This document shows positions 3,052 through 29,589 of a stretch of 46,486 nt of DNA, piece by piece. A program made the translations under genes and the position numbers. The notes under the pieces were generated by a model. The model saw only the letters and a list, made by a program, of their open reading frames with translations. It did no database searches and was not told where the DNA came from. The stretch lies in the IMG/VR virus record IMGVR_UViG_3300010265_000001; one strand, 5' to 3'. This DNA comes from a virus. Within the stretch, counting starts at the first letter, position 1. Each line of letters begins with the position of its first letter.

Positions 3052-3069
3052 TTCAGAGAGGTGAAGAAC

Positions 3070-13791: not shown

Positions 13792-14880
13792 ATGGCTATA
13801 ACAAACAGAGACTTTGATGTCGCCGTTCGCCTGCTGAGCGGCGGCACAAATGAAGCGATTTACAACGACGTCGGCCTCCCGTCCATCATGGTGAGGAAGG
13901 ATAAAAAGCAGATCTCCGAAGTCATAGCCGGAGGCAGCGCAAGCACTCACCCGGCCTTTATAGTGGACGGCGTCGAGGTTCCTTCCTTCTACATCAGCAA
14001 GTTCCAAAATGTAGTATATAAAGGCAGAGCCTACTCTCTGCCTATGCAGGATCCCGGAAACTCCATAAACTTCGACAACGCAAAGGCAGCCTGCGAGGCG
14101 AATGGCCCGGGCTTCCACCTTCCGACTATTGCCGAATATGCCTTTATTGCACAGGAGGCAAGGAACCGCGGAACGATGCCGAGGGGCAACAACAACTACG
14201 GCAAAGATCACTCGGCCCCATGGGAAACGGGTATACCGACATATATCGACGGCGAAGGAAGAGTTTGCAGAGTGGCCACAGGTTCCGGCCCAGTCTCATG
14301 GTCAGATAACTGGCAAGAAGATGGCATATGGGACTTGAATGGCAACGTCCACGAGTGGCAAGGTGGATACAGGACGGTCGACGGGGAAATCCAGATCATA
14401 CCCGACAACAATGCAGCCATGCAGATAAACCAAAACCCTGATAGCACGTTCTGGAAGGCAATTATGCCGGACGGTTCACTGGTGGCTCCGGGTACACCCG
14501 GGACACTAAAATGGGACTACTTAAACCCGGTGCCAGTAGGAGGAACGGGAGAGTATGCCTTCAGGCTGAACACGGTAATCGCAAACCCGGCAGACAATGA
14601 GACGGCATATGGATCAGTCTTGTTTCACGCCTTAACAGCAGCCGACGGCGTAAATGTTCCGGAGCTCCTAAAAGTCCTCTGTCTATTCCCTAACGAGCCG
14701 GGCGGCGACTATGGAAACGACAGGCTATATATGAGGAACATCGGAGAGCGGCTCGCGGCTCGTGGCGGCCGCTGGTCCAGCGCGTCGAGCGCTGGTGTGT
14801 TCTGCACGGGCGGCAACGCCCCTCGGTCGCACGTCGGCGCGTACATCGGCTTCCGCTCCGCTTACATTCCGGGGATCTGA
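13792..14880 (+). CDS. DGR target protein 1: FGE/C-type-lectin-fold putative receptor-binding protein with C-terminal VR1
   Basis: 362 aa. The C-terminus ...ERLAARGGRWSSASSAGVFCTGGNAPRSHVGAYIGFRSAYIPGI has the FGE-sulfatase-type CLec signature. Its last roughly 117 nt match the TR. Confidence 0.9.
   Translation: MAITNRDFDVAVRLLSGGTNEAIYNDVGLPSIMVRKDKKQISEVIAGGSASTHPAFIVDGVEVPSFYISKFQNVVYKGRAYSLPMQDPGNSINFDNAKAACEANGPGFHLPTIAEYAFIAQEARNRGTMPRGNNNYGKDHSAPWETGIPTYIDGEGRVCRVATGSGPVSWSDNWQEDGIWDLNGNVHEWQGGYRTVDGEIQIIPDNNAAMQINQNPDSTFWKAIMPDGSLVAPGTPGTLKWDYLNPVPVGGTGEYAFRLNTVIANPADNETAYGSVLFHALTAADGVNVPELLKVLCLFPNEPGGDYGNDRLYMRNIGERLAARGGRWSSASSAGVFCTGGNAPRSHVGAYIGFRSAYIPGI
14746..14862 (+). repeat. 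DGR variable region VR1
   Basis: Hand alignment of 117 nt to TR 15322-15438 gives 16 differences. 14 are at TR adenines and 2 at TR thymines. Confidence 0.9.
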
Positions 14881-14911
14881 GATCTGCCAATCTGAAAATC
14901 TGACAAGGGCG
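14863..14911 (+). promoter_or_regulatory. Conserved 3' flank of VR1 with four phased ATCTG repeats (candidate DGR target-recognition element)
   Basis: tacattccggggATCTGagATCTGccaATCTGaaaATCTGacaaggg aligns with the flank of VR2 (24370-24418) and has the same 7/8/8-nt spacing. The TR has no such flank. Confidence 0.6.
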
Positions 14912-14931
14912 TCCCGCCAAAGGACGCCCTT
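14905..14931 (+). other. GC-rich hairpin downstream of VR1 (DGR-associated stem-loop and/or weak terminator)
   Basis: aagggcgtcc / ggacgccctt forms a perfect 10-bp stem with a 7-nt loop. No strong T-tract follows. Confidence 0.6.
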
Positions 14932-14950: not shown

Positions 14951-15292
14951 ATGGCCGATTTTATACTACAACAGCGAATAAACCGCATGATCCTGAAATC
15001 GACGCCCCGCATCATGAACATGAAGAAGCCCGAGAAGTTCGTCCTCGGCGCTGCGATCCGGGAAAGCGAATACAAGATCCTGCGGCTTACTATACTCGGG
15101 AACAAGACAAGAGACAGCAAAAGACCGTACCAGATGGAGATCGACGCAGAGCTCGAAGTTCTACGGGCCTATATTGATATAGCAGTCGCACCAGAGGCAC
15201 GGCTTATTTCCACGGGTGTGCATGAGGAATGGTCGAAGGAAATCAACGAGATCGGCCGCCTCCTCGGCAAGTGGATAAAATCCACTAAATAG
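14951..15292 (+). CDS. avd: DGR accessory variability determinant (Avd, four-helix-bundle protein)
   Basis: 113 aa, basic and helical, located between the target gene and the TR as in the BPP-1 mtd-avd-TR-brt layout. Confidence 0.8.
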   Translation: MADFILQQRINRMILKSTPRIMNMKKPEKFVLGAAIRESEYKILRLTILGNKTRDSKRPYQMEIDAELEVLRAYIDIAVAPEARLISTGVHEEWSKEINEIGRLLGKWIKSTK

Positions 15293-15321
15293 CACCTGCG
15301 GGGGATGCGCCGAATAAAATC

Positions 15322-15438
15322 GAGCGGCTCGCGTATCGTGGCGGCAACTGGAACAACACGTCGAACGCTGGTGTGTTCTACATGAACGGCAACAACCCTC
15401 GGTCGAACGTCGGCGCGTACATCGGCTTCCGCTCCGCT
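15322..15438 (+). repeat. DGR template repeat (TR)
   Basis: A non-coding copy of the VRs. It is rich in AAC codons in the VR frame: 8 AAC and 23 adenines by hand count. Confidence 0.9.
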
Positions 15439-15648: not shown

Positions 15649-16764
15649 ATGGCAAAAATATCAAACATTTACAAGGACATTTACAGCTGGGACAACCTCT
15701 ACAACGCGTACAGAGAGGCAGCTCGCGGCAAATGGTTCAGGGATGACGTGGCGCGCTTTACGGCTCACCTCGATGAAAACCTGATCCAGCTCCAAAACGA
15801 GCTCATGTGGCACACCTACAAGGTCGGCCGGTACCGCGAGTTCTATGTCTACGAGCCTAAAAAGCGCCTGATCATGGCGCTGCAATTCAGGGATCGCGTC
15901 GTGCAGTGGGCTATATACCGGCAAATCAACCACCTATTTGATAAGCAATTCATTTATGACTCTTACGGCTGCCGGGAAGGCAAGGGAACCCACCGAGCAG
16001 CTGACCGCCTTCAATACTGGATGCGGGCAGTCGACAGAAAGCCGAGTGAATGGTATTACCTGAAGCTCGACATCAGCAAATATTTTTACCGTGTAGATCA
16101 CCGGACACTCATGGACATCCTGCGCCGGAAAATTGACGACGAGGATCTCCTCTGGCTGCTCGGTACGATCATTAACTGCGAGCATACGGCCTTCGGCCTG
16201 CCGCTGGGCCTGAGCCCTGACCAATGCGACAAGGCTGACCGACTCATGGAGGTCGGGATGCCGATCGGCAACCTGACGAGCCAACTGTTCGCAAATATCT
16301 ACCTCAACGAGCTCGATCAATTCGCAAAGCACGAGCTCCGGCTCCGTTATTACATCAGGTACATGGATGACGTGATCATCCTGCACCAAGACAAGAAATA
16401 TCTGCACGAGGTAAAGGACAGGATCGAGGTATTCCTCAACGAGGAGCTCAGGCTCCACCTGAACAACAAGACGGCCATCCGGAAAGTGAAGTCCGGGATC
16501 GAGTTCGTTGGCTTCAGGATATTTCCGACGCATCGGAAGTACAAGAAGAAATCCCTGCGCAAACTCATGAGCCGGCTGAAATATGTGGCCAAAGAGTACG
16601 CAGCGGGACGCATGAGTCTCGAGAAGGTCAACGCCACAGTCCAGTCCTATTATGGAGCTATGCAGCACTTCAACAGCTACGGCCTGCGCCGTAAATTGTC
16701 ACAAACGGTGGTGTTCAAGAGAACGACACCAGAAATGGAGGGATCCGACGATGCACAGAACTGA
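15649..16764 (+). CDS. DGR reverse transcriptase
   Basis: 371 aa. It has the YMDD box (YIRYMDDVIIL) and the DGR-type motif PIGNLTSQLFANIYLNELD (SQ in place of the group II intron QG). Confidence 0.92.
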   Translation: MAKISNIYKDIYSWDNLYNAYREAARGKWFRDDVARFTAHLDENLIQLQNELMWHTYKVGRYREFYVYEPKKRLIMALQFRDRVVQWAIYRQINHLFDKQFIYDSYGCREGKGTHRAADRLQYWMRAVDRKPSEWYYLKLDISKYFYRVDHRTLMDILRRKIDDEDLLWLLGTIINCEHTAFGLPLGLSPDQCDKADRLMEVGMPIGNLTSQLFANIYLNELDQFAKHELRLRYYIRYMDDVIILHQDKKYLHEVKDRIEVFLNEELRLHLNNKTAIRKVKSGIEFVGFRIFPTHRKYKKKSLRKLMSRLKYVAKEYAAGRMSLEKVNATVQSYYGAMQHFNSYGLRRKLSQTVVFKRTTPEMEGSDDAQN

Positions 16765-17793: not shown

Positions 17794-19368
17794 ATGAAAA
17801 TATGTATTGACCCCGGGCACGGGCAGTATGGGAACCCGGGCGTGACAAAACCATACTACGAAGGGACGCAAATGTTCAAACTCGCCCAGCTGCAAAAGGC
17901 TGAGCTTGAGAAGTACGAGAACACAACCGTCGTCATCACCAGAAAGAAGATCACAGACGATCCAAGCCTCGCAGCAAGGGGCCAGATGGCCGCTGGCTTC
18001 GATCTGTTCCTGAGTGACCACAGCAACGCACCCGGAGACGGTGCCGCAAATTATAACGCCATCACCGGGACGACCGTGCTGGACTCAGTAACAAGACCCA
18101 ATAAGACGCTGGCCACCGCCCTCGGCGAAACCGTGGCCAAGGTCATGGGCCACCACTTCAGGGGCATCACATACAAGAAAAACGACTCCGGAACCGACTG
18201 GTATGGAGTCTTGAGAAGTGCCATAGCAGCAGGCTGCAAGAGCGCGCTCCTGATCGAGCACGGCTTCCACACCAACCCAAAGGACTGCGGCTTTTTGCTT
18301 CAGGATGCAAACCTTGAGAAATTGGCAAAGGCTGAGGTAGACGTCATCGCTGCGCACTATGGCCTAAAACTCAAAGGATCCACAAAGCAGCCAGAGGCTC
18401 CGACAGCTGGCAGTCATCCGATCGTGGGAAAGGCTACGGCCACCGCAGCACAGGCCAAGACATGGGCCAAGAACAACGGAGCGACCTCTTTATTCATTGA
18501 GCTGGCCGACACCTTCTGGAGGATCGCACAGGCCGCCGGCGTCAATCCGGTCGTCGCATATGCACAGAGCGCCAAAGAAACCGGGTACGGACATTTCAAG
18601 GGCGTGCTGGATGCCAGCTTTATGAACCCATGCGGCCTCAAGACAACGGCCGGCGGTGCGAACAATGACCCGAACGCTCACAAGCGCTTCAGTTCATGGG
18701 AGGAAGGCATCACCGCACAGGTCGATCACCTCGCACTATACGCAGGGGCTCCGGGCTATCCTAAAGCAGGAACTCCGGATCCTCGTCATTTCCCATACCT
18801 GAAGGGTACAGCTCCAACCGTGGAGCAACTCGGAGGCAAATGGGCCCCGGCTTCTACCTATGGCACCGACATCGTGGCCATGATGGCCAAGCTGGAAGCA
18901 ACCAAGGCAGCGACAGCTCCGGAGCCTGCTGTCATGTACTACGTCCAGACCGGCGCATATTCCAACAAGACCAACGCCGACGCACAATATCACAAGGTTA
19001 AGGCTGCCGGCTTCGATGCCATCATCAAGCAGTCGGGCAATCTTTACAGAGTGCAGGTCGGAGCCTTCAGCGTGAAGGCAAACGCCGACGCCTATGCTGC
19101 CAAGCTGAAAGCGGCCGGCTTCGACACATATGTCACAACAACCGGCGGCACTCAGGTGGCTGCTGGATCCGCGCCGGCACCGGCCAAGAAGATCGAGGTC
19201 GGCAGCAAGGTCAAGATCAAGAACAGTGCCACCAATTACAGTACCGGCCAGAAGATCCCCGACTGGGTGAAGGCCAATACCTACACCGTGCAGCAGCTCG
19301 GAACAGGCAAGGCCCTCCTGAAGGAGATCGTCAGCTGGGTGAATACTTCAGACCTGACGCTCGTCTAA
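17794..19368 (+). CDS. Multidomain endolysin: N-acetylmuramoyl-L-alanine amidase, glucosaminidase-like domain, two SPOR repeats and a C-terminal binding domain
   Basis: MKICIDPGHG (Amidase_3 start), YAQSAKETGYGHF (glucosaminidase-like), YYVQTGAYSNKTNAD.../YRVQVGAFSVKANAD (SPOR), and a C-terminus homologous to 9941-10114. Confidence 0.85.
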   Translation: MKICIDPGHGQYGNPGVTKPYYEGTQMFKLAQLQKAELEKYENTTVVITRKKITDDPSLAARGQMAAGFDLFLSDHSNAPGDGAANYNAITGTTVLDSVTRPNKTLATALGETVAKVMGHHFRGITYKKNDSGTDWYGVLRSAIAAGCKSALLIEHGFHTNPKDCGFLLQDANLEKLAKAEVDVIAAHYGLKLKGSTKQPEAPTAGSHPIVGKATATAAQAKTWAKNNGATSLFIELADTFWRIAQAAGVNPVVAYAQSAKETGYGHFKGVLDASFMNPCGLKTTAGGANNDPNAHKRFSSWEEGITAQVDHLALYAGAPGYPKAGTPDPRHFPYLKGTAPTVEQLGGKWAPASTYGTDIVAMMAKLEATKAATAPEPAVMYYVQTGAYSNKTNADAQYHKVKAAGFDAIIKQSGNLYRVQVGAFSVKANADAYAAKLKAAGFDTYVTTTGGTQVAAGSAPAPAKKIEVGSKVKIKNSATNYSTGQKIPDWVKANTYTVQQLGTGKALLKEIVSWVNTSDLTLV

Positions 19369-19382
19369 TAACAACACAGAAA

Positions 19383-19422
19383 AACCCGCTCTCCGGATGT
19401 CCTCCGAAGGGCGGGCTTTTTA
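19383..19422. terminator. Bidirectional terminator between the convergent endolysin and integrase genes
   Basis: aaaacccgc...gcgggcttttt forms an extended imperfect dyad, A-rich on one side and T-rich on the other. Confidence 0.7.
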
Positions 19423-19435
19423 TATCGCGCCAACT

Positions 19436-21001
19436 CTATGCTGCCGGCAGCTTCATAACTAACACGAACACTGACTCCAAGACATAGATCTGCGTGTTCG
19501 AGTACGCGTTCTTTGGTGGAGCAAAGGACGCCAAAGTCGAACACTCTGGAGCCCCAGATTTATCGCAGTTTTCAACGATCGACCTCGTGACTGTACTCTG
19601 CGGCCCGGTGTAATTATATGCGATCCTGATCTCGTCATCGTACAGGTAGACAGCATTGACAAAAGCGTCGATGACTGTCCTCTGGTAGTCCTCGTCTGTA
19701 TAGTCACCGCCCCGGAACTTCTCAAGCCAGAAAATGACCTGATCCCTCTCGATGCGCGGCTTCTTTATTTGCTCTCTGGATATTCCAACAATGAGATCAT
19801 CCCTCTGAGCTTCCAACTCCATGAGTCTCTCCTTCGTGGTCGGAGTGATGATCCCCTGCTCGATGGCTGCCATAATATTCCGGATGGCCCTCTCTGTCTC
19901 TTTAAGCTGTTGCTCCATAGCATAGAGGACGGTATTCGTCAGCTCGCGCTCCTGAAGGGCCATAACAGCGTCGGCGATCTTCTCGATGACGTCATCCTGA
20001 AGAACCTGCTGCACAGTCTCGCGGACAACCAGCTCCTCGATCCACTTCTTTTTTACCGCCTTCTTATCGCATACGCGGCGGCGCTTGTTATTATTGCATT
20101 TATAGTAATAGTATACCGTGCCATGCCTGCCGGTGCCGCTCTCTCCGATCATGTTACCGCCACACCTGCCGCAGAACAGCTTCGTCGTCAGCAGGTAGTC
20201 CACTTCAGTCCGGGCCATGGCCGGGGCTTTTTTTGTTTTCTCTATCATGGCTTGAACCTCCTCAAAGAGCGCCCGGTCAATAATAGCAGGCACACCGCCC
20301 TCGATGCGGATGTCGCGGTATTGATAGACGCCGATATACTTCTCATTTCTAAGCATTTTCCTGAGACTGTTCTTGTTGAATGGATTGCCTCTGGAAGTCT
20401 TGAGCCCTCTCTCGTTCATTAAGTTTATGATCTGCGTGACATTCATGCCGCTGGCATAAAGCTCGAAAATCTCCTTGACGATCGGAGCGGTGGCGGGATC
20501 TATCTCGAAGCGCTGATCAGCTCCGACTCTATAACCGAGGGCTATGCCGCCGCCGTTCACTTTACACTTGAGAGCATTATCCTCCAGTCCTCCGATGATG
20601 TCCTGCCTCAAGTTCTCGGAATAATATTCAGCATACCCCTCAAGCATTGACTCGAGGAGGATGCCTTCAGGGCCGTCCGGGATCGTCTCCTTTGCATAGA
20701 CAACCCGGACGCCGTTCTTTTTAAGTCTCGCCTTATACATGGCCGCATCGTATCGGTTACGAGCGAACCTGTTCACCTTATAGGTGATCACAACCTGAAA
20801 CTTCCCCTTTGCGCTGTCTCTGATCATGCGCTGGAAGTCTGGCCTCTTGTCTGTCTTTCCAGTGAGAGCTCTGTCACAGTATTCCCCGATGACAAGCATC
20901 CCATTGCGCTCGGCAAACTCGTGGCACTCGCGCAGCTGTACCTCGATCGACTCCTCGCGCTGATTATGTGATGAATAACGTGCATATATGACAGCCTTCA
21001 C
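19436..21001 (-). CDS. int: Large serine recombinase (phage integrase)
   Basis: 521 aa. Resolvase-type N-terminus MKAVIYARYSS with the catalytic Ser context, a recombinase domain, and a zinc ribbon CGRCGG...YYYKC. GTG start after aaaggaggtg. Confidence 0.9.
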   Translation of the reverse strand: MKAVIYARYSSHNQREESIEVQLRECHEFAERNGMLVIGEYCDRALTGKTDKRPDFQRMIRDSAKGKFQVVITYKVNRFARNRYDAAMYKARLKKNGVRVVYAKETIPDGPEGILLESMLEGYAEYYSENLRQDIIGGLEDNALKCKVNGGGIALGYRVGADQRFEIDPATAPIVKEIFELYASGMNVTQIINLMNERGLKTSRGNPFNKNSLRKMLRNEKYIGVYQYRDIRIEGGVPAIIDRALFEEVQAMIEKTKKAPAMARTEVDYLLTTKLFCGRCGGNMIGESGTGRHGTVYYYYKCNNNKRRRVCDKKAVKKKWIEELVVRETVQQVLQDDVIEKIADAVMALQERELTNTVLYAMEQQLKETERAIRNIMAAIEQGIITPTTKERLMELEAQRDDLIVGISREQIKKPRIERDQVIFWLEKFRGGDYTDEDYQRTVIDAFVNAVYLYDDEIRIAYNYTGPQSTVTRSIVENCDKSGAPECSTLASFAPPKNAYSNTQIYVLESVFVLVMKLPAA

Positions 21002-21014
21002 GGTGCCACCTCCT

Positions 21015-21470
21015 TTACTTCTTTATTGGCAGTTTTTGAGCATCCCAAAACCAACCGAGGGCGATGGTTATTATGTCAGCGATCCAGCCTATGCCGAACA
21101 CACCAGCGGAAAGCGCCCACAGTAGTCCAGTTCCTTTTTTACCTACATAGAACCGATGGACGCCGAAATAACCGAGGAATATGCAGAGCAGCAGCGTGAC
21201 CGTCTTGCTTTTTGGCGACACGGCTGCCGGATCCCTCTCTATGTATTGATCAGACATATGGCCATCGTCTCCGGATGTCTGCCGGGAGCTGCTGGATGAT
21301 GAATAAGAAATACCAGATCCCGGGATGCCGACGGTCGTCGTCCTTCTCCCGGTGGTGCTGATCGTGTGCTTCAACCCTCTCGGGCCGAATGATACACTTG
21401 CGCTCTTTGCGTTAAGATTAAGCCTAACGCCGGGTAAAATCTTCATGCTTTTTCTGAACCTGAAACCCAT
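21015..21470 (-). CDS. DUF4236-like plus TM2-domain membrane protein (lysogeny-operon cargo)
   Basis: MGFRFRKSMKILPGVRLNLN (DUF4236-like N-terminus) and C-terminal LLLCIFLGYFGVHRFYVGK...GIGWIADI (TM2 domain). The start was chosen at the Met preceded by ggaaaggag. Confidence 0.65.
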   Translation of the reverse strand: MGFRFRKSMKILPGVRLNLNAKSASVSFGPRGLKHTISTTGRRTTTVGIPGSGISYSSSSSSRQTSGDDGHMSDQYIERDPAAVSPKSKTVTLLLCIFLGYFGVHRFYVGKKGTGLLWALSAGVFGIGWIADIITIALGWFWDAQKLPIKK

Positions 21471-21554
21471 ATTTTGATACACTCCTTTCCCTCCCATGCG
21501 GGAGGCTTTTTTATTTTGAAGAACCGGGCGGCTTGCATGTGAAATCATAATAAA

Positions 21555-21920
21555 TTATATTACCGACTCGTTTTTTGACGCCCCTTTATAAGCAAGGAGA
21601 ACGGCCTTAGCGGCTGCCCTTCCTTCGGGCATCGCATCACGCCATAACCTTATAAGCTCCGACTCCTCGGCCGATAAACCGGCAATACGAGCGGGCACTT
21701 CCTCTATTTTTTGAACAACGGGCCTGCCATATAGCTCCTCGACAGTCACACCAAAGTATTCAGCTATCGCCAGAACCTTATCCACACCAATCCGCATTTC
21801 GTCGACATTCCCGTTGATGATGCTGTCCATCGTTGAATAGCTGATCCCGATGGATGACGCCAACGTGCCCAGCTTCATGCCGCGCTCGTTAAGCAGTTTT
21901 TTTACGTTTTCTTTGAACAT
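21555..21920 (-). CDS. CI-like repressor (XRE-family HTH)
   Basis: MFKENVKKLLNERGMKLGTLASSIGISYSTMDSIING is an HTH_3-type motif. The gene is divergent from the Cro-like gene. RBS aaggaggtg. Confidence 0.8.
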   Translation of the reverse strand: MFKENVKKLLNERGMKLGTLASSIGISYSTMDSIINGNVDEMRIGVDKVLAIAEYFGVTVEELYGRPVVQKIEEVPARIAGLSAEESELIRLWRDAMPEGRAAAKAVLLAYKGASKNESVI

Positions 21921-21943
21921 TCCAGCACCTCCTTGCTTGTTCA

Positions 21944-21972
21944 ATTTTAACATTAAGCGAGCTCTTATTCAA
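21944..21972 (-). promoter_or_regulatory. Leftward (repressor) promoter candidate
   Basis: On the minus strand: TTGAAT, 17 nt, TAAAAT. Confidence 0.5.
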
Positions 21973-21979
21973 GAATTAT

Positions 21980-21995
21980 TTCCGATATATCGGAA
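21980..21995. promoter_or_regulatory. Operator O1, perfect 16-bp palindrome TTCCGATATATCGGAA
   Basis: Read directly. It is one of three related sites in the repressor/cro intergenic region. Confidence 0.75.
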
Positions 21996-22012
21996 TTAAT
22001 TCAAAAAAGAGC

Positions 22013-22041
22013 TTGTTTTTTTTCCGACATATCGTTATAAT
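22013..22041 (+). promoter_or_regulatory. Rightward early promoter candidate
   Basis: TTGTTT, 17 nt, TATAAT. The spacer and -10 overlap operator O2. Confidence 0.55.
22022..22037. promoter_or_regulatory. Operator O2 (TTCCGACATATCGTTA, right half degenerate)
   Basis: Matches the O1/O3 consensus in 13 of 16 positions and overlaps the -10 of the rightward promoter. Confidence 0.6.
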
Positions 22042-22051
22042 TTTAGATAAG

Positions 22052-22067
22052 TTCCGATGTATCGGAA
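22052..22067. promoter_or_regulatory. Operator O3 (TTCCGATGTATCGGAA)
   Basis: Near-perfect palindrome lying between the rightward promoter and the Cro-like RBS. Confidence 0.7.
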
Positions 22068-22095
22068 GAATAAAAACCAAGAAAGGAGTAAGAAA

Positions 22096-22332
22096 ATGGC
22101 ATATCCTAATTTGATCGCTGAGATGAAACGTCAAGGTATTACACCAAAAGCCATCGCGGAGGTGGTGAACAAATCACCCGACACGATCAACAACTGGCTC
22201 AAAGGAAAGGGCGAGTTCCCGATCGGCAAAGCCTTCGCAGTGCAAGAGAAGTTTTTCCCCACTCTCCCGATCTCTTACTTATTCAGCCAGAAGCCCATCA
22301 CCCCGCCGGTCACTGAGAAGCCGGCAGTCTAA
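22096..22332 (+). CDS. Cro-like/early HTH regulator
   Basis: 78 aa. MAYPNLIAEMKRQGITPKAIAEVVNKSPDTINNWLKGK is an HTH. It is the first gene of the rightward operon. RBS aaaggag. Confidence 0.7.
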   Translation: MAYPNLIAEMKRQGITPKAIAEVVNKSPDTINNWLKGKGEFPIGKAFAVQEKFFPTLPISYLFSQKPITPPVTEKPAV

Positions 22333-22354
22333 AAAACACGAAAGGAGCAAACCC

Positions 22355-23080
22355 ATGAAAAAGCAGTTTTTCATCAATGAAACACCAGTCAGCCGCGTGA
22401 CCTTCCAATGGACTGTCTGGAGTGAAAAAGGCGACGGCGGCAACTGGCTGGAGACCGAGGAACTCACACCTCGCAAACTCAAGAACCGCATGGCCAACGG
22501 CGTGAAGTATGAGGACATCAGGATCGCGACCATCGGCTTCGAGCCGGTCGATTATGTCGAGTTTTCTGCTGACTTCAAGGACGACGGGGCCCACTTATAC
22601 ACCAACGAGCTGACATCTGAGCAGATCCAAGCAGCTGAGAACGAGTACACCCAATGGGAAAAGGAATACGAGGCAAAGAGAACCAAAGAGGCCGAGCTGC
22701 TGGCCACCGTGACCGAGGAGCTTCCGGACATGGATCAGGATCAGAGCAGGGCCCTCGCCTCTGCCATGGCATCCATTGAACCGGACGCAGATCCCGAGTG
22801 GGCGAAAGAGTTCATCGCCTCAATGAAGCGTGCAGCTGAGATACTGGCCGAGATCTTTCGGAAGGTGATCGAGACAGTCAAGCAGCTCACCGAGTCGCTG
22901 GCCAAAACATTCATGCAAAACAAGGACAAGTTCATGGATGCGGCTATGCTCGCAGCTTCTCATCCTCCGAAGTGGTGGCACCTTTACAAACACGCCAAGA
23001 AGGCCCGAGTCCGCAAGAAGTACAGGCGCAAACTCATGGACAATCTGCTGGCAACCTTACAGGCTGCCGGGGCAATATGA
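22355..23080 (+). CDS. Hypothetical early protein
   Basis: 241-aa ORF, RBS aaaggag. Acidic centre, basic C-terminus, no motif recognised. Confidence 0.5.
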   Translation: MKKQFFINETPVSRVTFQWTVWSEKGDGGNWLETEELTPRKLKNRMANGVKYEDIRIATIGFEPVDYVEFSADFKDDGAHLYTNELTSEQIQAAENEYTQWEKEYEAKRTKEAELLATVTEELPDMDQDQSRALASAMASIEPDADPEWAKEFIASMKRAAEILAEIFRKVIETVKQLTESLAKTFMQNKDKFMDAAMLAASHPPKWWHLYKHAKKARVRKKYRRKLMDNLLATLQAAGAI

Positions 23081-23271
23081 AGGCCCGATGCGTGGGATGC
23101 GGAAAGACGTGGAACGTGAGCATCTTCGCGCGGATACCAAAAACCGGCTATATATGCCCCCACTGCTATTCAAAGCGAAAGGAGGCGCAACGATGCACCA
23201 ATACATATGCGAGCACTGCAACGCACACCTCGATCCGGGCGAGCGCTGCGACTGCCAAAAAGTCGAGATAA
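23078..23271 (+). CDS. Small zinc-ribbon protein (CxxC...CxxC)
   Basis: MKARCVGCGKTWNVSIFARIPKTGYICPHCYSKRK..., ATGA-coupled to the previous gene. Its 3' part overlaps the next ORF, so the true end is uncertain. Confidence 0.4.
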
Positions 23272-23417
23272 TACCAGACAAGATCCCGGAAACCGTAACC
23301 GATAGACTGGCCCGCCCGCTGATCGACATCGTGGCCAAAGCGTTCGAGGATCCGAAAGTCGTCAAGGAGTACGGACGCTGGAAAAAGGAGCGCCAAGAAA
23401 AACTTGCGGCCCACTGA
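23193..23417 (+). CDS. Small Cys-rich protein (CxxC...CxC)
   Basis: MHQYICEHCNAHLDPGERCDCQK... RBS aaaggagg lies 6 nt upstream. Confidence 0.55.
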   Translation: MHQYICEHCNAHLDPGERCDCQKVEIIPDKIPETVTDRLARPLIDIVAKAFEDPKVVKEYGRWKKERQEKLAAH

Positions 23418-23445
23418 GCCGCAAATACGAAAGGAGCAAAAAATT

Positions 23446-24435
23446 ATGAAAAACGAACTTATTTTTGACAATGCTGGAATACCGAGCATCATGGTCACAA
23501 TCCCGAAATTCAAGCTCTCGGAGGTAATCGACGGAGCGCCCGACATCACTCACCCTGCCTTCATCGTGAACGGCAAAGAAGTCGACGAAATCAGTATTTC
23601 CAAGTATCAGAACGTTGTCATCAATGGCAAAGCGTACAGCCTACCGCTTCAGGAGCCTGCCGTGAACATCGACTTCGACAACGCGATCTCAGTCTGCGAA
23701 GCCAAGGGCCCGGGCTGGCACCTTATGACGAACGCCGAATGGGCTGCGATCGCTCTCTGGAGCAAGAAGAACGGCACCCTTCCTCACGGAAATACCAGCT
23801 GCGGCAAATACCACGCAGACAACTCAGAACGCGGGATCCTGTTCGATAACGTCAGGACACTCACCGGCAGCGGGCCAAAGACATGGACACACGACCACAC
23901 CGAGCTCGGCATCCACGACCTGAACGGCAACATTCTCGAATGGGTTGGCGGCGTTCGCTGGGTAGACGGCGAGCTCCAGATCATCCCGGACAACAATGCC
24001 GCAGCAGGGGCAGATCAGACAGCTGAGAGCAAGGACTGGACGCCAGTCATGACACCGGACGGATCCGTCAAGTACAAAGTAACAGAGGATGCCATCACAT
24101 TGACCACCGAGCAGCCCGAGCAATACTGGGACGGCTTCAGGTTTAACGACCTTCAGAGCGAGATCGAAGCGCCTGACATCGTGAAGGCACTGGCTCTTTA
24201 TCCGGCAGACGACGAACAGGTCGACGGATATTTCTGGCTCGATACCGAAGGGGAGCGGCTCGCGTCTCGTGGCGGCGCCTGGTACGGCACGTCGAACGCT
24301 GGTGTGTTCTGCATGGGCGGCGACTACCCTCGGTCGTACGTCCACACGTACATCGGCTTCCGCTCCGCTTATATTCGTCCTTCTGCAATCTGTCAATCTG
24401 ACAATCTGGACAAGGATGGTGGCCGCGATGAATAG
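23446..24435 (+). CDS. DGR target protein 2: paralogue of 13792-14880 with C-terminal VR2, located in the early region
   Basis: 329 aa, alignable to target 1 over its full length (IPSIMV, THPAFIV, KAYSLP, FDNA..CEA.GPG.HL, NGN..EW.GG.R.VDGE.QIIPDNNAA). The C-terminus ERLASRGGAWYGTSNAGVFCMGGDYPRSYVHTYIGFRSAYI matches the TR. ATG 23446 follows aaaggag. Confidence 0.88.
   Translation: MKNELIFDNAGIPSIMVTIPKFKLSEVIDGAPDITHPAFIVNGKEVDEISISKYQNVVINGKAYSLPLQEPAVNIDFDNAISVCEAKGPGWHLMTNAEWAAIALWSKKNGTLPHGNTSCGKYHADNSERGILFDNVRTLTGSGPKTWTHDHTELGIHDLNGNILEWVGGVRWVDGELQIIPDNNAAAGADQTAESKDWTPVMTPDGSVKYKVTEDAITLTTEQPEQYWDGFRFNDLQSEIEAPDIVKALALYPADDEQVDGYFWLDTEGERLASRGGAWYGTSNAGVFCMGGDYPRSYVHTYIGFRSAYIRPSAICQSDNLDKDGGRDE
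24253..24369 (+). repeat. DGR variable region VR2 (remote, about 8.8 kb downstream of the TR)
   Basis: Hand alignment of 117 nt to the TR gives 15 differences. 12 are at TR adenines and 3 at TR guanines (24343-24346). Confidence 0.85.
24370..24418 (+). promoter_or_regulatory. Conserved 3' flank of VR2 with phased (A/T)TCTG repeats, here inside coding sequence
   Basis: tatattcgtccTTCTGcaATCTGtcaATCTGacaATCTGgacaagga. The spacing (7/8/8) and terminal acaagg match the VR1 flank. Confidence 0.6.
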
Positions 24436-25165
24436 TCTGAAATCATTATTTGAAAACCACAAGGCCCTCGTCCTGTTCGACTGCGAAACCAGCGGTCTCG
24501 ATCCGGACAAGCATCAGAGCATTGAGCTGGCGGCCATACGCATCGAGGAGACACCTCGGGGAGCTCTCCGGATCGCCGACCAGATGGACACCTTCATCAA
24601 ACTGCCGGACGGTGAGAAACTCCCACCTGACATCGTGGAGCTGACGGGGATCACTGACGCGAAGCTGCTGAGCGAGGGTGTAAACACTCACAAGGCAGCC
24701 AAGACCTTCGCCAGAATGTTCTCGGGCACCGGGGCCGTGCTCATGGTGGCCCACAACGCACAGTTCGACATCCAATTCGTGAGCGCGCTGCTGCGCAAAG
24801 AACAGCAGACCATCAGCGTGCCAGTCAATAAGCTCGACACCCTGACCGTATACAAAGACCGCAGGCCATACCCTCACAAGCTGGCCAATGCGATCATCGC
24901 CTACAACCTGACCGACAAGGTGCAGAACAGCCACCGGGCCATCGACGACGTGCTTGCCATGTTCGAGGTTATGAAGGCCATGGCCGAGGAACGCGATGAT
25001 CTGGCAACATACATAAACCTGTTCGGCTATAACCCCAAGCATGGAGTGAGCGGTCGCAGGATCCCGGGCATCCGGTACGAGGCACAGAACTTCAACAACA
25101 TTATGACAAGGCCCGAGCAGACACTTCCGGCAAGGGTGGCAGCCAAGGGGGCGTTCAGGCGATGA
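24428..25165 (+). CDS. DnaQ-like 3'-5' exonuclease (DEDDh)
   Basis: Exo motifs LFDCETSGLD, VAHNAQFDIQF and HRAIDDVLAM. The start overlaps the stop of target 2 by 8 nt. Confidence 0.85.
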   Translation: MNSLKSLFENHKALVLFDCETSGLDPDKHQSIELAAIRIEETPRGALRIADQMDTFIKLPDGEKLPPDIVELTGITDAKLLSEGVNTHKAAKTFARMFSGTGAVLMVAHNAQFDIQFVSALLRKEQQTISVPVNKLDTLTVYKDRRPYPHKLANAIIAYNLTDKVQNSHRAIDDVLAMFEVMKAMAEERDDLATYINLFGYNPKHGVSGRRIPGIRYEAQNFNNIMTRPEQTLPARVAAKGAFRR

Positions 25166-25455
25166 CGACAAGCCCACCCATCACCATCGAAAGCGCTGAA
25201 CTCAGGAGCAAAGTCGAGAAAAGCCTCGGAAAAATACCGGACGAGCTCTGGAACAGGGCAGAAAAATATGCCCGCCACAAGCTGGACAGCTATCGGAAAC
25301 GCTGGCCCGATGTCGACCACTTCGACAACACCTACCTCGTGTTATTGACCGAGGACACCGTAAAAGAAACCGCCTTCTCGGACTACACGATCGCCGCCAG
25401 TACGATGATCATGGAAGCCCGGGAGGAAACAAAGAAAGGAGCAAAAACACAATGA
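25162..25455 (+). CDS. Hypothetical protein
   Basis: 97-aa ORF coupled on both sides. Confidence 0.5.
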   Translation: MTTSPPITIESAELRSKVEKSLGKIPDELWNRAEKYARHKLDSYRKRWPDVDHFDNTYLVLLTEDTVKETAFSDYTIAASTMIMEAREETKKGAKTQ

Positions 25456-26537
25456 AAACAGGAAGAACCCTTCAAGAACTGGCCATCGAGCTGGATCGCC
25501 AGCTCAAAGCAAAGCGTGATTATTTAGTGGACACGCCCGCCCTACGTCTGACACCCAGCAAAGAGGACGGCCACCTCATGCTTGACGTAAACTTCGGGCA
25601 AGGTTCCAGCGGGCTCACCGAGATCCAGAGGTTAAACGTCAACGACATCGCCCACAGACAGATCGGGCAACACCTCGGCATCCCGGCCCGCTATTATGAC
25701 AAGATGCGCACCGACTTCCCTGAGCTGCTGGCCGCAAACGTGAACGGCTGGTTTGAGAGAACACCCTCTCAGAGGATGCTCAGAACACTGGACGGAACGG
25801 CCCGCGCCTTCCTCTCCAATAAGTACCGCAGGATCGACAATTACGAGGTCGCTCAGACCGTCCTCCCTGTCATCGCAGAAATGGACGGGGCCGTCGTGGA
25901 GAGCTGCGAGCTCACTGACTCCCGGATGTATCTCAAAGTCGTGAACCAGAGGATCACCGCAGAGGTTAAGAAGGGCGACATAGTTCAGGCCGGCATCGTG
26001 ATCACCAACTCAGAAACCGGACAAGGCAGCGTAAGCGTCAGCCCTCTGATCTATCGACTGGTATGCAGCAACGGCATGATCGCAGCAGACAACAGTCTCA
26101 GGAAGTACCACGTCGGCCGCACGAATGAAGTCGGCGACAATTTCGAGATCTTCAGGGACGAGACCATCGAAGCAGACGACCGGGCCTTCCTCATGAAGAT
26201 CGAGGACACAGTTCGCGCAGCTGTCGACCAGACAAAGTTCAACGCCATCGTCGCAAAGATGCGCGAGGCTGCTGAGATCAAGATGGAGACCAACCTCGTA
26301 CCGCAGGTCGTTGAATTATCGGCCAAGGAGTTCGGCCTGACTCAAGAGGAGAGCAACGGCGTCCTCGGGCACCTAATCCAAGGCGGCGACCTCTCACTCT
26401 ACGGACTGGCCAATGCTGTCACCCGTCACAGTCAGGACGTTAAGAGCTACGACAGGGCCACCGAGCTGGAGGCTGCTGGCTGGAGCATTTTGAACATGAG
26501 CCCCTCTCTCTGGAGGCAGCTCAATACAGCGAGGTGA
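25452..26537 (+). CDS. DUF932-like phage/plasmid protein
   Basis: 361 aa. The overall pattern (RMLRTLDG.ARAFLSNKYRRIDNYEV..., ITNSETGQGSVSV) recalls the DUF932 family. Confidence 0.55.
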   Translation: MKTGRTLQELAIELDRQLKAKRDYLVDTPALRLTPSKEDGHLMLDVNFGQGSSGLTEIQRLNVNDIAHRQIGQHLGIPARYYDKMRTDFPELLAANVNGWFERTPSQRMLRTLDGTARAFLSNKYRRIDNYEVAQTVLPVIAEMDGAVVESCELTDSRMYLKVVNQRITAEVKKGDIVQAGIVITNSETGQGSVSVSPLIYRLVCSNGMIAADNSLRKYHVGRTNEVGDNFEIFRDETIEADDRAFLMKIEDTVRAAVDQTKFNAIVAKMREAAEIKMETNLVPQVVELSAKEFGLTQEESNGVLGHLIQGGDLSLYGLANAVTRHSQDVKSYDRATELEAAGWSILNMSPSLWRQLNTAR

Positions 26538-26541
26538 TGAA

Positions 26542-27255
26542 ATGTATCAGGCAACGAGAAGGAGCTGCCAGCTCGCACCTGACAGCTCCCGGAGATCATC
26601 AGAACCGCTCAAAGCAATACCAATGACCTCCTCCATTATAGCACGCAGACGCAAAAAGCTGAAGATGCGCAGGCGTGCCGCAGCCATCATCATGATCCTA
26701 CTGGTCGTGTGGGTGGCGTGGAGCATTAAGACCATCAGCGACCGGACGCAGACCGCCGAACAACCGCCGGTCGACCTGCCGACAACCACAGAACAGCCAA
26801 CGGCAGCGCCGGCAATATCCATGGAGCCAGCAGTCATTCCGATCGCAATACCAGCACCAGAGAAGCCTCCGAGGTACGAGCTGACAGCTGAGGAGCGCGA
26901 CATCATCGAGAGAGTGGTCACTGCTGAAGCCGCTGGCGAACCGTTCGCCGGTCAGGTCGCAGTCGCCCAGTGCATCCTCAACGCTTGCGAGAAGGATGGC
27001 ATCAGGCCGCTCGAAGTTCTCACAAAGTACAAGTACGCCACGAGCAGGCCCGATCCTGAAGGTACGGTACCGGAGGCCGTGGCCGCCGTATTCGATGACG
27101 GCTGGTATGTAACGACAGAACCGATCCTCTACTTCTACGCGCCGGATCGGACAAAAAGCGACTGGCACGAGTCTCAGGACTTCGTGATTGAGATAAACGG
27201 GCACCGCTTTTTTGCTGAAAAACCAAATCAAGAAAGGAGCAACCCCAATGAATGA
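26542..27255 (+). CDS. Membrane-anchored SleB-like cell-wall hydrolase (Hydrolase_2)
   Basis: N-terminal TM AAAIIMILLVVWVAW. The C-terminus ERDIIERVVTAEAAGEPFAGQVAVAQCILNA...ILYFY is typical of the SleB/CwlJ domain. The true start may be Met at 26623. Confidence 0.7.
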   Translation: MYQATRRSCQLAPDSSRRSSEPLKAIPMTSSIIARRRKKLKMRRRAAAIIMILLVVWVAWSIKTISDRTQTAEQPPVDLPTTTEQPTAAPAISMEPAVIPIAIPAPEKPPRYELTAEERDIIERVVTAEAAGEPFAGQVAVAQCILNACEKDGIRPLEVLTKYKYATSRPDPEGTVPEAVAAVFDDGWYVTTEPILYFYAPDRTKSDWHESQDFVIEINGHRFFAEKPNQERSNPNE

Positions 27256-27583
27256 AAATACTCAGAAATCCGTGATCCAGATATTAACCGAGACGCTCGC
27301 AGAAATGAGCACCAGAGCCCTCAACGCTGAGGCTGAGGTCGAAAGACTGAAGGCTGACGACAACAACTGGTACCGCCACTGGCAGACCAAAGACGCCGAG
27401 GTCAAGAAGCTCACCGCTGAGCTGAACGAGCTCAAGAGCAAGTTCCACGATCTCATGAATGAGCGCAACGACCTCAATGACGCATATGACGCATTGAAAC
27501 ATAAAGCAGCGCCGGCAGTCGATGAAAAGACGCTGGAGGAGCTCAGAACCAAATTAAGCAAGGAGGATAAGAGTCATGAGTGA
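27248..27583 (+). CDS. Coiled-coil protein, function unknown
   Basis: 111 aa, RBS aaaggag. Confidence 0.5.
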   Translation: MNENTQKSVIQILTETLAEMSTRALNAEAEVERLKADDNNWYRHWQTKDAEVKKLTAELNELKSKFHDLMNERNDLNDAYDALKHKAAPAVDEKTLEELRTKLSKEDKSHE

Positions 27584-28241
27584 TAAGACCATCGCCGCCA
27601 TCGCGGCAGAAATAGAGCAAAAACAGCCAGTACAGGCACAGGCAAACGAGGCCGCGGCTCCGGAAGCTGCTGTCGAAATGTACCCGATCACCCTCGAGGA
27701 GCTGGAGAACATTGAACTCCCCGGAGACCTCCCGGCTGACGCTCAACCGGAGCGCAAGGAGTTCATGATCACAGACGACAGATGCGCCGACTGGGCCGTC
27801 CGCAAGATCAAAGAGGAAAAGCAGGAATATGACCGCATCCGGGAGCTCGGTGAGCAGCAGATCGCTGAAATTCAGGAGAAAATCGACCGGGCCAAGAGAC
27901 GCTTCGAGCAGAACACCGGCTTCCTGACCAGCAAGCTGGCACAGTATTTCAACACCGTGCCGCATAAAAAGACCAAGACCCGCGAGACATACCGCCTCCT
28001 CTCTGGCAACCTCGTCCTTAAACTGGGAGGAGTCAAGGCCACACTGGACGACGAGAAGCTGGTGGCATGGCTGAAGGACAACGGGTACACCGACTTCGTG
28101 AAGGTCGAGGAAAAGCCAACGTGGGGAGAGCTCAAGAAAAAGCTCAACCTCGAGCCCGGGCTGGTCACAATGGCCGAAACCGGCGAGATCGTGGAAGGCA
28201 TCACCGTCGTGCAGCAGCCTGACACGTTCGTCGTCGACTAA
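27576..28241 (+). CDS. gam: Gam-like host-nuclease inhibitor (Mu Gam family)
   Basis: 221 aa. FMITDDRCADWAVRKIKEEKQEYDRI...AEIQEKID plus its position upstream of ERF fits the Firmicutes-phage Gam family pattern. Confidence 0.65.
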   Translation: MSDKTIAAIAAEIEQKQPVQAQANEAAAPEAAVEMYPITLEELENIELPGDLPADAQPERKEFMITDDRCADWAVRKIKEEKQEYDRIRELGEQQIAEIQEKIDRAKRRFEQNTGFLTSKLAQYFNTVPHKKTKTRETYRLLSGNLVLKLGGVKATLDDEKLVAWLKDNGYTDFVKVEEKPTWGELKKKLNLEPGLVTMAETGEIVEGITVVQQPDTFVVD

Positions 28242-28256
28242 GGAAGGAGGATCGAC

Positions 28257-29126
28257 ATGGCTGACACTACCAAAAAGACTGCCGGCACAACTACGGCGGC
28301 TGCTAAGGAACAGAGCAAGACCCCAGCAGCACCACAGACCAGCGAGATCCCTCATGAGGCCATGAGCCTCCAACAGAAGATCGTCGAGCTGCGGAAAGCC
28401 TGCCCGAAGATCATCAAGCAGAAATACAGCGACGGCGTCGATTATAAATTCGCCAAGATCTACGACGTATGGGAGGCCATCACCCCCGTGATGAACGAGG
28501 TCGGCGTCAACTTCGACGTCGTGGCCGAGGTTCCCAGCAAGAAGGACGAGCTCGGCAACGCTGTCTATTACACGACCATCATGGCCAAGACCAAGTACGG
28601 GGAGCGCCTCATGTTCCTCTATGAGGCCGACCTGACTGTCAAATGGACGAACGTCGACGATCCGGACGACACCGAAACCGTCACCCTCCACGCCATAGGC
28701 TGGAACGATGACCCGGCCAAGGCCAAGGGAAGCGCGTGGACTTATTGCCTGAAGTATTACCTGTTCGAGAAGTTCAGCATTGACCAAGGCGAGGATGATC
28801 CGGACGCCAACGGCTTCAACAGCACCGGAACGCCACAGAATACGCCGCAGGGCGCGAAAACCGGAAACAGACAACCAAACACCCGACCACCGCAGCAAAA
28901 CGCGCCACAGGGCAACACAGGCGCTCAAAAACCGCTAAGCGATAAGCAGCTCGAGAGGATGTACCTCAAGGGCGAGGCTGCCGGCATAAGCAGGGAGCTC
29001 GTCAACAAGCGCATCGCTGAGAAGTATCACAAGCAGAACCCCGCGCTCATGAGTCGGGCCGAATATGACGAGGTATGCGCTGCCCTCGATAAAGCAGCCG
29101 CAGAAGGAGGAACAGCTCATGAATGA
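28257..29126 (+). CDS. erf: ERF-family single-strand annealing recombinase
   Basis: 289 aa. LQQKIVELRKACPKIIKQKYSDGVDYKFAKIYDVWEAITPVMNEVGV is typical of ERF. The C-terminal half is Gln/Pro-rich. Confidence 0.75.
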   Translation: MADTTKKTAGTTTAAAKEQSKTPAAPQTSEIPHEAMSLQQKIVELRKACPKIIKQKYSDGVDYKFAKIYDVWEAITPVMNEVGVNFDVVAEVPSKKDELGNAVYYTTIMAKTKYGERLMFLYEADLTVKWTNVDDPDDTETVTLHAIGWNDDPAKAKGSAWTYCLKYYLFEKFSIDQGEDDPDANGFNSTGTPQNTPQGAKTGNRQPNTRPPQQNAPQGNTGAQKPLSDKQLERMYLKGEAAGISRELVNKRIAEKYHKQNPALMSRAEYDEVCAALDKAAAEGGTAHE

Positions 29127-29514
29127 TGTTAAACTGCTCGGCCGACTGGCCGCAGATCCAGAACTCAGATACACAACCAGCGGCATCCCTGTCGCAACCT
29201 TCGATCTGGCAGTAAACCGCCCGACAAGCGACGGGCATAAGGCCGTCGACTTTTTGCCGATTGTCGCATGGAGGTACCGGGCCGAGTTCGCGGCCAACTA
29301 CCTCACAAAGGGCCGCCAGATCGTTGTTGATGGGACGCTGAGGACAAGAAAATGGCAGGACAACGACGGCAAAAACCACAAGAGCATCGAGATCGTGGCC
29401 GAAAACATTTACTTCGCAGACAGTAACAGAGGCGACTCACACGCCTCCTCCTCTCCATCGGTTCCGGATGGCTTCGAGGAGGTTCAGGACTCCGATGACG
29501 ACCTGCCGTTCTAA
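29119..29514 (+). CDS. ssb: Single-stranded DNA-binding protein
   Basis: MNDVKLLGRLAADPELRYTTSG (OB fold) and the acidic tail DSDDDLPF. Confidence 0.92.
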   Translation: MNDVKLLGRLAADPELRYTTSGIPVATFDLAVNRPTSDGHKAVDFLPIVAWRYRAEFAANYLTKGRQIVVDGTLRTRKWQDNDGKNHKSIEIVAENIYFADSNRGDSHASSSPSVPDGFEEVQDSDDDLPF

Positions 29515-29517
29515 CAC

Positions 29518-29561
29518 GACCGCCGGACGACCACTGGACGACCGCCGGGCAACCGGAGAAC
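29518..29561. repeat. Iteron cluster A: four 11-bp-phased units (gaccgccggac, gaccactggac, gaccgccgggc, aaccggagaac)
   Basis: Read directly in the intergenic gap between ssb and the replication gene. Confidence 0.7.
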
Positions 29562-29589
29562 GACCAAGCACAGAAAGGAGGATCAGGTC

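Follow-up and report, generated by a model that had tools for sequence, protein, structure and literature searches.

The virus record IMGVR_UViG_3300010265_000001 of IMG/VR, a stretch of 46,486 nucleotides that was analyzed as a whole and is called the window below, is a complete, circularly permuted genome of a temperate myovirus with a G+C content of 55%. A diversity-generating retroelement (DGR) lies at the end of its baseplate/tail module, with a variable protein gene (target 1, T1) that ends in a variable repeat (VR1) and is followed by the gene for the accessory protein Avd, the template repeat (TR) and the gene for the reverse transcriptase (RT). A second variable protein gene (target 2, T2), which ends in a variable repeat of its own (VR2), is located 6.7 kb past the RT gene, beyond the lysis and lysogeny genes, between a Cro-like gene and the Gam, Erf and SSB genes and also upstream of the replication initiator gene. 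To our knowledge, phage DGRs are understood almost wholly via tail-tip receptor binders. On the evidence set out below, we consider it probable that T2 is a genuine second target of the single DGR, within a paralog lineage of early operons, and that it is accessory.

The two targets and their common template

The repeats form a family of direct repeats with three members (VR1, 14743-14869; TR, 15319-15445; VR2, 24250-24376), which have exact stretches of up to 32 nt in common and a 27-nt core pattern that occurs exactly three times in the window, against 0 copies expected by chance. Every adenine of the TR core falls at codon position 1 or 2 in the reading frames of both VRs. A recount of the differences between VR2 and TR gave the same numbers as a preliminary description made from the sequence of the window, which had also placed the second gene about 8.8 kb downstream of TR on the same strand (VR2 starts 8931 nt away) and had stated that the VR1 and VR2 alleles differ, as they do. 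Full-length paralogy of the two targets was likewise borne out, since T2 aligns with T1 over residues 3-310 with 44% identity (E 2e-89); relative to T1, which carries the N-terminal extension typical of cassette-adjacent targets, T2 is shorter by 17 N-terminal residues, in line with the rough number proposed earlier, and by a 23-residue internal segment.

The predicted T2 protein matches the Pfam FGE-sulfatase family (9.5e-08), and its nearest solved structure by sequence is TaqVP (PDB 5VF4, E 1e-48; PMC6328139), the DGR variable protein of a Thermus aquaticus prophage, to which T1 can be matched end to end (E 7e-59). TaqVP is a single-domain monomeric C-type-lectin protein of the FGE subtype with a C-terminal VR, and it differs from T2 in being cassette-adjacent; its first ~22 residues and ~34 residues of its internal insert are missing in T2. 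Together these matches suggest that T2 is a C-type-lectin/FGE-type domain with a C-terminal VR, in agreement with the fold assigned to it before. Alignment with the single-domain TaqVP leaves T2 without N-terminal oligomerization or attachment domains of the beta-prism or beta-sandwich kind. No signal peptide or membrane segment was found in T2 (largest 19-residue Kyte-Doolittle mean, 1.03), which makes a role as a surface binder, one of those suggested at first, unlikely. Searches with PADLOC and NCBIfam matched nothing for T2 or for the small open reading frames (ORFs) upstream of it. The same 329-aa ORF is present in public gene calls on sister contigs.

Table 1. Positions of the DGR components, of the genes around T2 and of the main modules in the window
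Feature	Position	Strand	Description
Target 2 (T2)	23446..24435	+	329 aa, predicted TaqVP-like C-type-lectin (FGE subtype) variable protein
VR2	24253..24369	+	15 mismatches to TR 15322-15438, 12 at TR adenines
Non-adenine mismatch cluster of VR2	24343, 24344, 24346	+	TR positions 15412, 15413, 15415
VR2 3' cis element	24381..24408	+	Four (A/T)TCTG (24381, 24388, 24396, 24404), 7-8 nt spacing
Target 1 (T1)	13792..14880	+	362 aa, cassette-adjacent variable protein, end of baseplate/tail module; phrog_2889
VR1	14746..14862	+	16 mismatches to TR, 14 at adenines
VR1 3' cis elements	14875..14931	+	Four ATCTG (14875, 14882, 14890, 14898), 7-8 nt spacing, then hairpin
Avd accessory protein	14951..15292	+	phrog_3206, 6e-29; PF22296 bAvd on identical public copies
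TR	15322..15438	+	Sole TR in the window; 23 adenines in 117-nt core
DGR reverse transcriptase (RT)	15649..16764	+	phrog_1423, 2.9e-151; RVT_1 on public copies
Two small Cys-rich (zinc-ribbon-like) ORFs	23077..23417	+	23077-23271 and 23193-23417, 79-nt overlap, different frames
DEDDh (DnaQ-like) 3'-5' exonuclease	24428-25165	+	RNase_T, Pfam 1.2e-21
Lysis-lysogeny switch	21555..22332		CI-like HTH repressor 21555-21953 (-), Cro-like HTH gene 22057-22332 (+)
Serine integrase, TM2 protein, CI-like repressor		-	
Three small membrane proteins, then endolysin	17794-19368 (endolysin)		3' of DGR cassette
Major head	566-1636		
Sheath	3061-4545		
Tape measure	5626-7920		
Baseplate	10400-12573		Upstream of target 1
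Terminase	41416-43314		
Portal	43688-45322		

Variation at VR2 and the 3' flanks of the variable repeats

The three mismatches of VR2 at positions that are not adenines in the present TR fall into one 3' patch. This patch (TR positions 15412-15420) reads GGCGCGTAC in the window and in the same-strain assembly L181 only (fetched loci carry L numbers), and AACACGAAC in every TR of the seven relatives whose Avd is identical (L178, L179, L180, L182, L183, L184 and L185); the TR positions that correspond to the three mismatches are adenines in 7/7 of these relatives. The patch is also AACACGAAC in the TR of L101, and AGCACGAAC in that of a Tepidibacillus prophage (L102). Four adenines are thus gone from the TR of this strain (27 to 23), each by an A-to-N change, and it looks as if the TR itself was struck by mutagenized cDNA or was converted from a VR. 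The three mismatches of VR2 therefore appear to be relics of an adenine-richer ancestral TR: in comparison with the ancestral TR, 100% of the VR2 differences are at adenines, and the VR2 alleles of close relatives vary at ancestral-TR adenines only, the six adenines of the patch included. VR1 of the window agrees with the new patch, whereas VR1 of the same-strain L181 and VR2 of the window disagree with it. As homing starts at the 3' end, any rewrite would replace the patch, so that the VR2 allele of the window would predate the change in TR and its VR1 allele would postdate it. The locus L101 (JAQUYS010000047), a 6.9-kb contig labelled as part of a Candidatus Nanoarchaeia archaeon metagenome-assembled genome (MAG), has an Avd 94% and an RT 91% identical to those of the window, and is probably a mis-binned phage contig and not an archaeal DGR.

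Variation of VR2 among close relatives was followed in population contigs from other samples, which were obtained by exact-protein look-ups of the genes neighboring T2. In L169 and L170, the T2 scaffold is 99% identical to that of the window (8/807 differences), yet VR2 differs at 17 and 14 of 117 nt, respectively, at sites of TR adenines or ancestral adenines. Further distinct alleles were observed in L168 (95% identical scaffold) and L174 (93%), and nine distinct VR2 alleles were found among close relatives. The scaffold of T2 is selectively maintained: dN/dS is 0.08 in comparison with L002 and 0.07 with L084, at a dS of 0.5-0.6 (0.53 gene-wide vs. L002). Within the first 90 nt of VR2, the window and L002 differ at 14 adenine sites and at 0 non-adenine sites, and the non-adenine sites would thus have been homogenized, given a dS of ~0.5. 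Moreover, in 11/11 phages with both targets, including Clostridium phage Saumur, the remote VR matches the same TR, with differences almost only at adenines in 10/11; the exception, L003, has several non-adenine differences, and its VR2 looks partly degenerate. In Faecalibacterium phage FP_Lagaffe (Lagaffe), which is compared with the window below, variation at both VRs across cognate genomes has been reported (Gulyaeva 2024, PMC11792537). The allele diversity, the purifying selection, the homogenization, the matches to the same TR and the Lagaffe report all indicate that VR2 is a live DGR target.

The two VRs do not seem to be rewritten at the same pace. A contig of the same strain (ERZ27245369 k141_140187) matches the window with 0 mismatches over the 6738 nt that surround T2; over the 3342 nt that surround the cassette it has 20 mismatches, 20/20 of which are inside VR1. 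These 20 positions of VR1 are those that differ from L181, the same-strain assembly identical otherwise. VR2 is identical in four further same-strain contigs (five with that of ERZ27245369), one of which, 1.3 kb long, was the single match of a scan of metagenome DNA with the VR2 3' flank. The same-strain pair and the older 3' patch of VR2 suggest that VR1 was rewritten at least once while VR2 stayed fixed, and the turnover of VR2 thus appears to be slower than that of VR1. A side observation concerns L002 (IMGVR_UViG_3300034520_000087, 8296 nt), which starts just after TR and stops just after VR2; these ends fit assembly breaks at DGR repeats, and two-target phages may therefore be easily fragmented in metagenomes.

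Past the common ...GGCTTCCGCTCCGCT (the ...CCGCT end), both VRs run on as TAYATTC followed by the four (A/T)TCTG motifs, whereas TR diverges. The array follows the stop codon at VR1 and lies inside the ORF at VR2, where it encodes ...ICQSDNLD; the odd acidic tail of T2 is explained by this translation of the TCTG array. Downstream of VR1, a hairpin with a 10-bp GC-rich stem (14905-14914/14922-14931; fold -13.9 kcal/mol, z -2.2) is present, and no stable GC-rich hairpin was found after VR2 (fold z 0.03), which is a plausible cause of the slower rewriting of VR2. The fetched loci yielded 126 distinct VR flanks, of which 74 cassette-adjacent and 19 early-clade ones were compared with 73 TR flanks: NCTG motifs number 3.5 per 60 nt on average in the cassette-adjacent and early-clade VR flanks vs. 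0.37 in the TR flanks, and 221 of the 275 intervals between motifs are 7 or 8 nt. Arrays of 3-5 NCTG, mostly (A)ATCTG, with AACTG in phage Saumur, were seen in ~90 VR flanks (L001-L162) and in 0/73 TR flanks.

The best-known counterpart is Mtd of Bordetella phage BPP-1, which resembles T2 in its C-terminal VR, its C-type-lectin fold and the rewriting from a TR by RT and Avd. Its VR-specific initiation of mutagenic homing (IMH) element contains TCTG..CCTG..TCTTG at a spacing of ~8 nt, ahead of a GAAA hairpin. Given the like motifs and spacing, the NCTG array is probably the IMH of this clade, for which it is proposed here as a candidate; a description of its repeated nature was not found in the portion of the literature available to us. 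Mtd differs from T2 in its tail-fibre location next to the cassette and in its hairpin, whereas T2 is single-domain, hairpin-less, remote from the cassette and in an early operon instead of the tail module. The stem-loop of BPP-1 strongly raises homing efficiency, yet it is not strictly required (PMC3240598, PMC12875486), and a GC-rich hairpin is given for only 34% of DGRs in a survey (PMC5758913).

Early-region paralogs and the operon around T2

A survey of IMG/VR and of GTDB genomes (~160 loci) placed T2 in a distinct lineage. In a neighbor-joining tree of the scaffold (77 sequences, 270 columns), 15/15 genes in a T2-type context were separated from 48/48 Avd/RT-adjacent genes with bootstrap support of 100/100, and no cassette-adjacent gene was found inside the early clade; members of the same group are 57% identical, against 44% for members of different groups. 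This split indicates that the T1/T2 duplication is old, and a recent duplication in this phage was rejected. From the initial Met to the motif G.PS.MV, the early-clade members that could be scored have 10 aa, in comparison with 25-30 aa in most cassette-adjacent genes, whose N-terminus includes a conserved ...FDxxKLAVEA..GGKN... segment; the scored early-clade members are without this N-terminal segment. T2 has both the short N-terminus and the non-structural early context of the clade.

None of the clade members is next to Avd-TR-RT; they occupy early recombination or replication regions, or the early regions of Mu-like phages. In the exonuclease type, which includes the window, L083, L084, Lagaffe and eight Lachnospiraceae/Ruminococcaceae/Anaerofilum prophages, the order is target-exonuclease-Gam-Erf-SSB. 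In the RecT type (L003/L007, L004 and L088), it is AAA ATPase-target-RecT-MBL-replication genes, and in the Mu type (L005/L006, L085, L086, L090 and L009) transposase A, a B-like ATPase and Gam precede the target, which stands before Mor or lysis genes. The target of Clostridium phage Saumur has a PAPS-reductase-like gene on one side and the replication initiator gene on the other. The survey of synteny that the preliminary description had called for thus gave a divided answer: early placement holds across the clade, whereas the link to the exonuclease does not, as other members are found beside RecT/AAA or in Mu early regions. Judged from these gene orders, early placement is conserved across the clade and is no accident of this genome.

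One member of the clade, L084, belongs to a prophage of Tepidibacillus marianensis, whose DGR cassette (L102) is 37 kb away. Both loci are part of a complete prophage in a cultured isolate (LSZ-M11000, chromosome NZ_CP149939, ~1.64-1.69 Mb), with identities to the window of 89% for T2, 98% for Avd, 94% for RT and 87-97% for the integrase, and may offer a host clue and an experimental system. The 55% G+C of the window is seemingly high for the genus Tepidibacillus. Early-clade proteins tolerate 20-107 extra residues straight after the VR. In Lagaffe-type early targets, a helical extension of ~107-125 residues after the VR reaches up to the overlapping exonuclease start (L001, 32713-33057; L092, L093, L094, L098, L099, L103, L108 and L113), with 36-46% identity among the extensions; no counterpart of it was found anywhere in the window. 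A layout unlike the split one was observed in Microbacterium, Protaetiibacter and Leucobacter MAGs (L111, L120, L130, L146 and L149), in which two homologous targets stand in tandem.

Within the window, divergent promoter-like sites lie between the CI-like repressor gene and the Cro-like gene, at which a long rightward, plus-strand early operon begins that reaches the replication genes. The early location of T2 in this operon, upstream of Gam, Erf, SSB and the replication initiator, agrees with the preliminary description, as do the two zinc-ribbon ORFs with their Cys motifs before T2 and the DnaQ-like exonuclease gene, whose start is 8 nt before the T2 stop codon (ATGAATAG). The genes around T2 are tightly packed, with overlaps of 4-8 nt or gaps of 4-28 nt. 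A scan for promoters and terminators found none convincing that is specific to T2; the top-scoring promoter-like sites fall within the 5' part of the ORF itself and seem to be fortuitous. From the packing of the operon and the synteny, T2 would be co-transcribed with the early genes. The GC skew of the window gave neither an origin nor a replication-direction signal, and a megablast search of annotated phages with positions 19000-30000 gave just a 438-nt match and no close relative. The first Cys-rich ORF (23077-23271) has a CxxC...CxxC pattern, matches phrog_6107 over residues 1-38 and has a homolog upstream of the T2-type gene in L003; the second (23193-23417), the only one of the two in public gene calls, has a CxxC...CxC pattern. 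The second ORF has its stop codon within an inverted repeat just before T2 (23402-23426, stem 8-11 bp); this repeat has an intrinsic-terminator score on the minus strand (T-run) and no U-tract on the plus strand.

Natural variants that lack T2 were found in three contigs of ~37.7 kb from different samples (L172, JGI 3300010340; L173, ERZ778036 NODE_716; L176, ERZ27257420). In all three, the zinc-ribbon gene (98% nucleotide identity) directly adjoins the exonuclease gene (97%), at a junction in which ...GAAAGGAGCAAA is followed directly by CTCATG and which corresponds to window positions 23437/24428; the ribosome-binding site of T2 in the window serves the exonuclease in these variants. The contig L173 retains T1-Avd-TR-RT. 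The existence of such variants indicates that T2 is a discrete accessory cassette and dispensable. They may be obligately lytic, streamlined derivatives.

The layout of the window is already known in outline, and it is not the unusual kind that the preliminary description had supposed. In Lagaffe (NC_047911; Cornuault 2018, PMC5883640), as in the window, the tail genes are followed by target 1-Avd-TR-RT, lysis, lysogeny and early genes; a second FGE-type gene of the same paralog clade (gp40), with a VR2 that matches the same TR, directly precedes a 3'-5' exonuclease gene (gp41), with an 8-nt overlap, and then Gam, Erf and SSB. It differs in that gp40 is only 48% identical and continues past its VR for another 107 conserved residues, which the T2 of the window lacks. 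The Lagaffe papers, as far as their text was available, leave the early position, the short N-terminus and the dispensability without comment. In addition, non-adjacent second targets in the same prophage, within 50 kb and with one TR, were catalogued in 2018, as was the observation that the mutation pattern can differ between two targets of one TR; multi-target DGRs of Treponema and Legionella are grouped with such non-adjacent prophage targets as comparators, and the portion of this survey available to us describes no dedicated paralog lineage at a fixed early position (Wu 2018, PMC5758913). Two-target phage DGRs have been discussed since then (PMC10743442). In the accessible parts of the literature, including Roux 2021, no mention of the early position, the clade or the short N-terminus was found. 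The two-target layout is therefore not new, with Lagaffe reported in 2024 from the same clade and with the same synteny; what is new in detail is that early placement is conserved, that the NCTG array is specific to recipients, that the TR is depleted of adenines and that variants without T2 exist.

Mechanism and possible roles of T2

We propose that RT and Avd from the cassette 8.9 kb upstream copy TR RNA into adenine-mutagenized cDNA, which would replace VR1 next to the cassette or VR2 in trans, the retrohoming chemistry at VR2 being assumed by analogy with BPP-1. VR2 may be recognized by two features: the 3' stretch that it has in common with TR (TACATCGGCTTCCGCTCCGCT), and the VR-specific flank with four (A/T)TCTG motifs at 7-8 nt, which stands at the place of the BPP-1 IMH and from which TR is free. 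VR2 has no downstream GC hairpin and appears to be rewritten less often than VR1. The product would be a soluble, single-domain, TaqVP-like binder with a hypervariable surface, from a lineage that seems to be kept in the early operons of many temperate Bacillota phages as an accessory, non-essential component.

As to the role of this binder, we tentatively lean towards T2 being a free variable binder that is made early and is not mounted on the baseplate like T1. The main alternative, possible but somewhat doubtful, is that T2 is an ordinary structural receptor-binding tip protein encoded outside the tail module, which would double the receptor repertoire. Homology along the whole length of T2, to T1 as well as to variable proteins of prophages, would fit such a tip protein, as would the same variable positions that follow from the same TR and the match of phrog_5302, a 'tail protein' family, to the VR end of T2, and the Lagaffe target pair has been read as doubled host-range tools (PMC11792537). 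Against a tip protein and in favor of a free early binder stand the early position of the clade in three unrelated module types, whereas cassette-adjacent paralogs stay at the tail end, the absence from the scored members of the N-terminal segment that cassette-adjacent targets have, the tolerance of 20-107 residues after the VR, the dispensability of T2 in relatives that retain T1, and the slower turnover of VR2. That the early clade provides a hypervariable cytoplasmic non-virion binder for the first minutes of infection or induction is rather unlikely, although it would fit the early position in three module types, the short N-terminus, the dispensability of T2 and its want of a signal peptide.

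Several points weigh against our reading of T2 as an accessory second target with an early role of its own. With full-length homology and a shared template, T2 could share the ligand class of T1 and ride on the virion, as has been suggested for Lagaffe (Gulyaeva 2024). The case for early transcription of T2 is one of gene packing and synteny, the NCTG array is tied to VR recognition by correlation, and the meaning given to the missing N-terminal segment is an interpretation; the structure prediction for T2, for which the alignment comprised the two paralogs of the window only, had a mean pLDDT of 28. The slower turnover of VR2 is drawn from one fully informative same-strain pair and four VR2-only contigs, in which assembly consensus can mask within-sample variants. 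Finally, the variants without T2 also lack the integrase/TM2/CI module, a 241-aa gene (22355-23080) and DUF932, and therefore represent one deleted lineage and no clean knockout.

It is improbable that the early position serves the efficiency of retrohoming, through origin proximity, fork co-orientation or a cDNA-handling exonuclease, and not a role of the protein. In a reconstituted BPP-1 DGR, near-origin targets co-directional with replication are edited more efficiently and the DnaQ-family ExoI modulates editing (PMC12875486), and the translation of T2 is coupled to that of a DEDDh exonuclease; in this strain, however, the turnover of VR2 is slower than that of VR1, no such exonuclease accompanies the targets of the RecT and Mu types, and the GC skew has no origin or direction signal. 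Far less probable still is a VR2 that is a dead relic, a decaying duplicate no longer diversified, which the preliminary description had named as a possible outcome. The identical VR2 in five other same-strain assemblies, the three mismatches at non-adenines of the present TR and the absent hairpin would fit such a relic, but it is largely refuted by the nine alleles, with 99%-identical scaffolds that differ at 14-17 VR2 sites at adenine positions, by the scaffold dN/dS of 0.07-0.08 and by the homogenized non-adenine sites despite a dS of 0.5; at the three odd mismatches, 7/7 relatives have adenines in their TRs, and the BPP-1 stem-loop is not strictly required (PMC12875486). Equally remote is the maintenance of the TR-like 3' end of T2 by ordinary recombination or gene conversion among VR1, TR and VR2, which the long exact common stretches would allow and for which the A-to-N changes of the TR itself, which seem to need a non-canonical transfer, might speak; it was rejected, as the VR2 differences are confined to ancestral-TR adenines in the window lineage and almost entirely to adenines in 10/11 two-target phages, and as recombination would carry VR1 alleles over to VR2, whereas in no phage are the alleles at the two sites related.

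Should T2 prove to be an ordinary second tip protein, the window would document in detail a two-target layout that is already known. In either case it offers natural experiments, in the form of one TR with targets with and without a hairpin, recipients marked by NCTG arrays and a TR with lost adenines. The conserved early placement is a testable lead: a DGR-target lineage held long-term in early operons suggests that diversification may serve a non-structural purpose, and if the early clade does provide cytoplasmic binders, DGRs would be used beyond receptor recognition, for example in neutralizing variable host defense or takeover targets.

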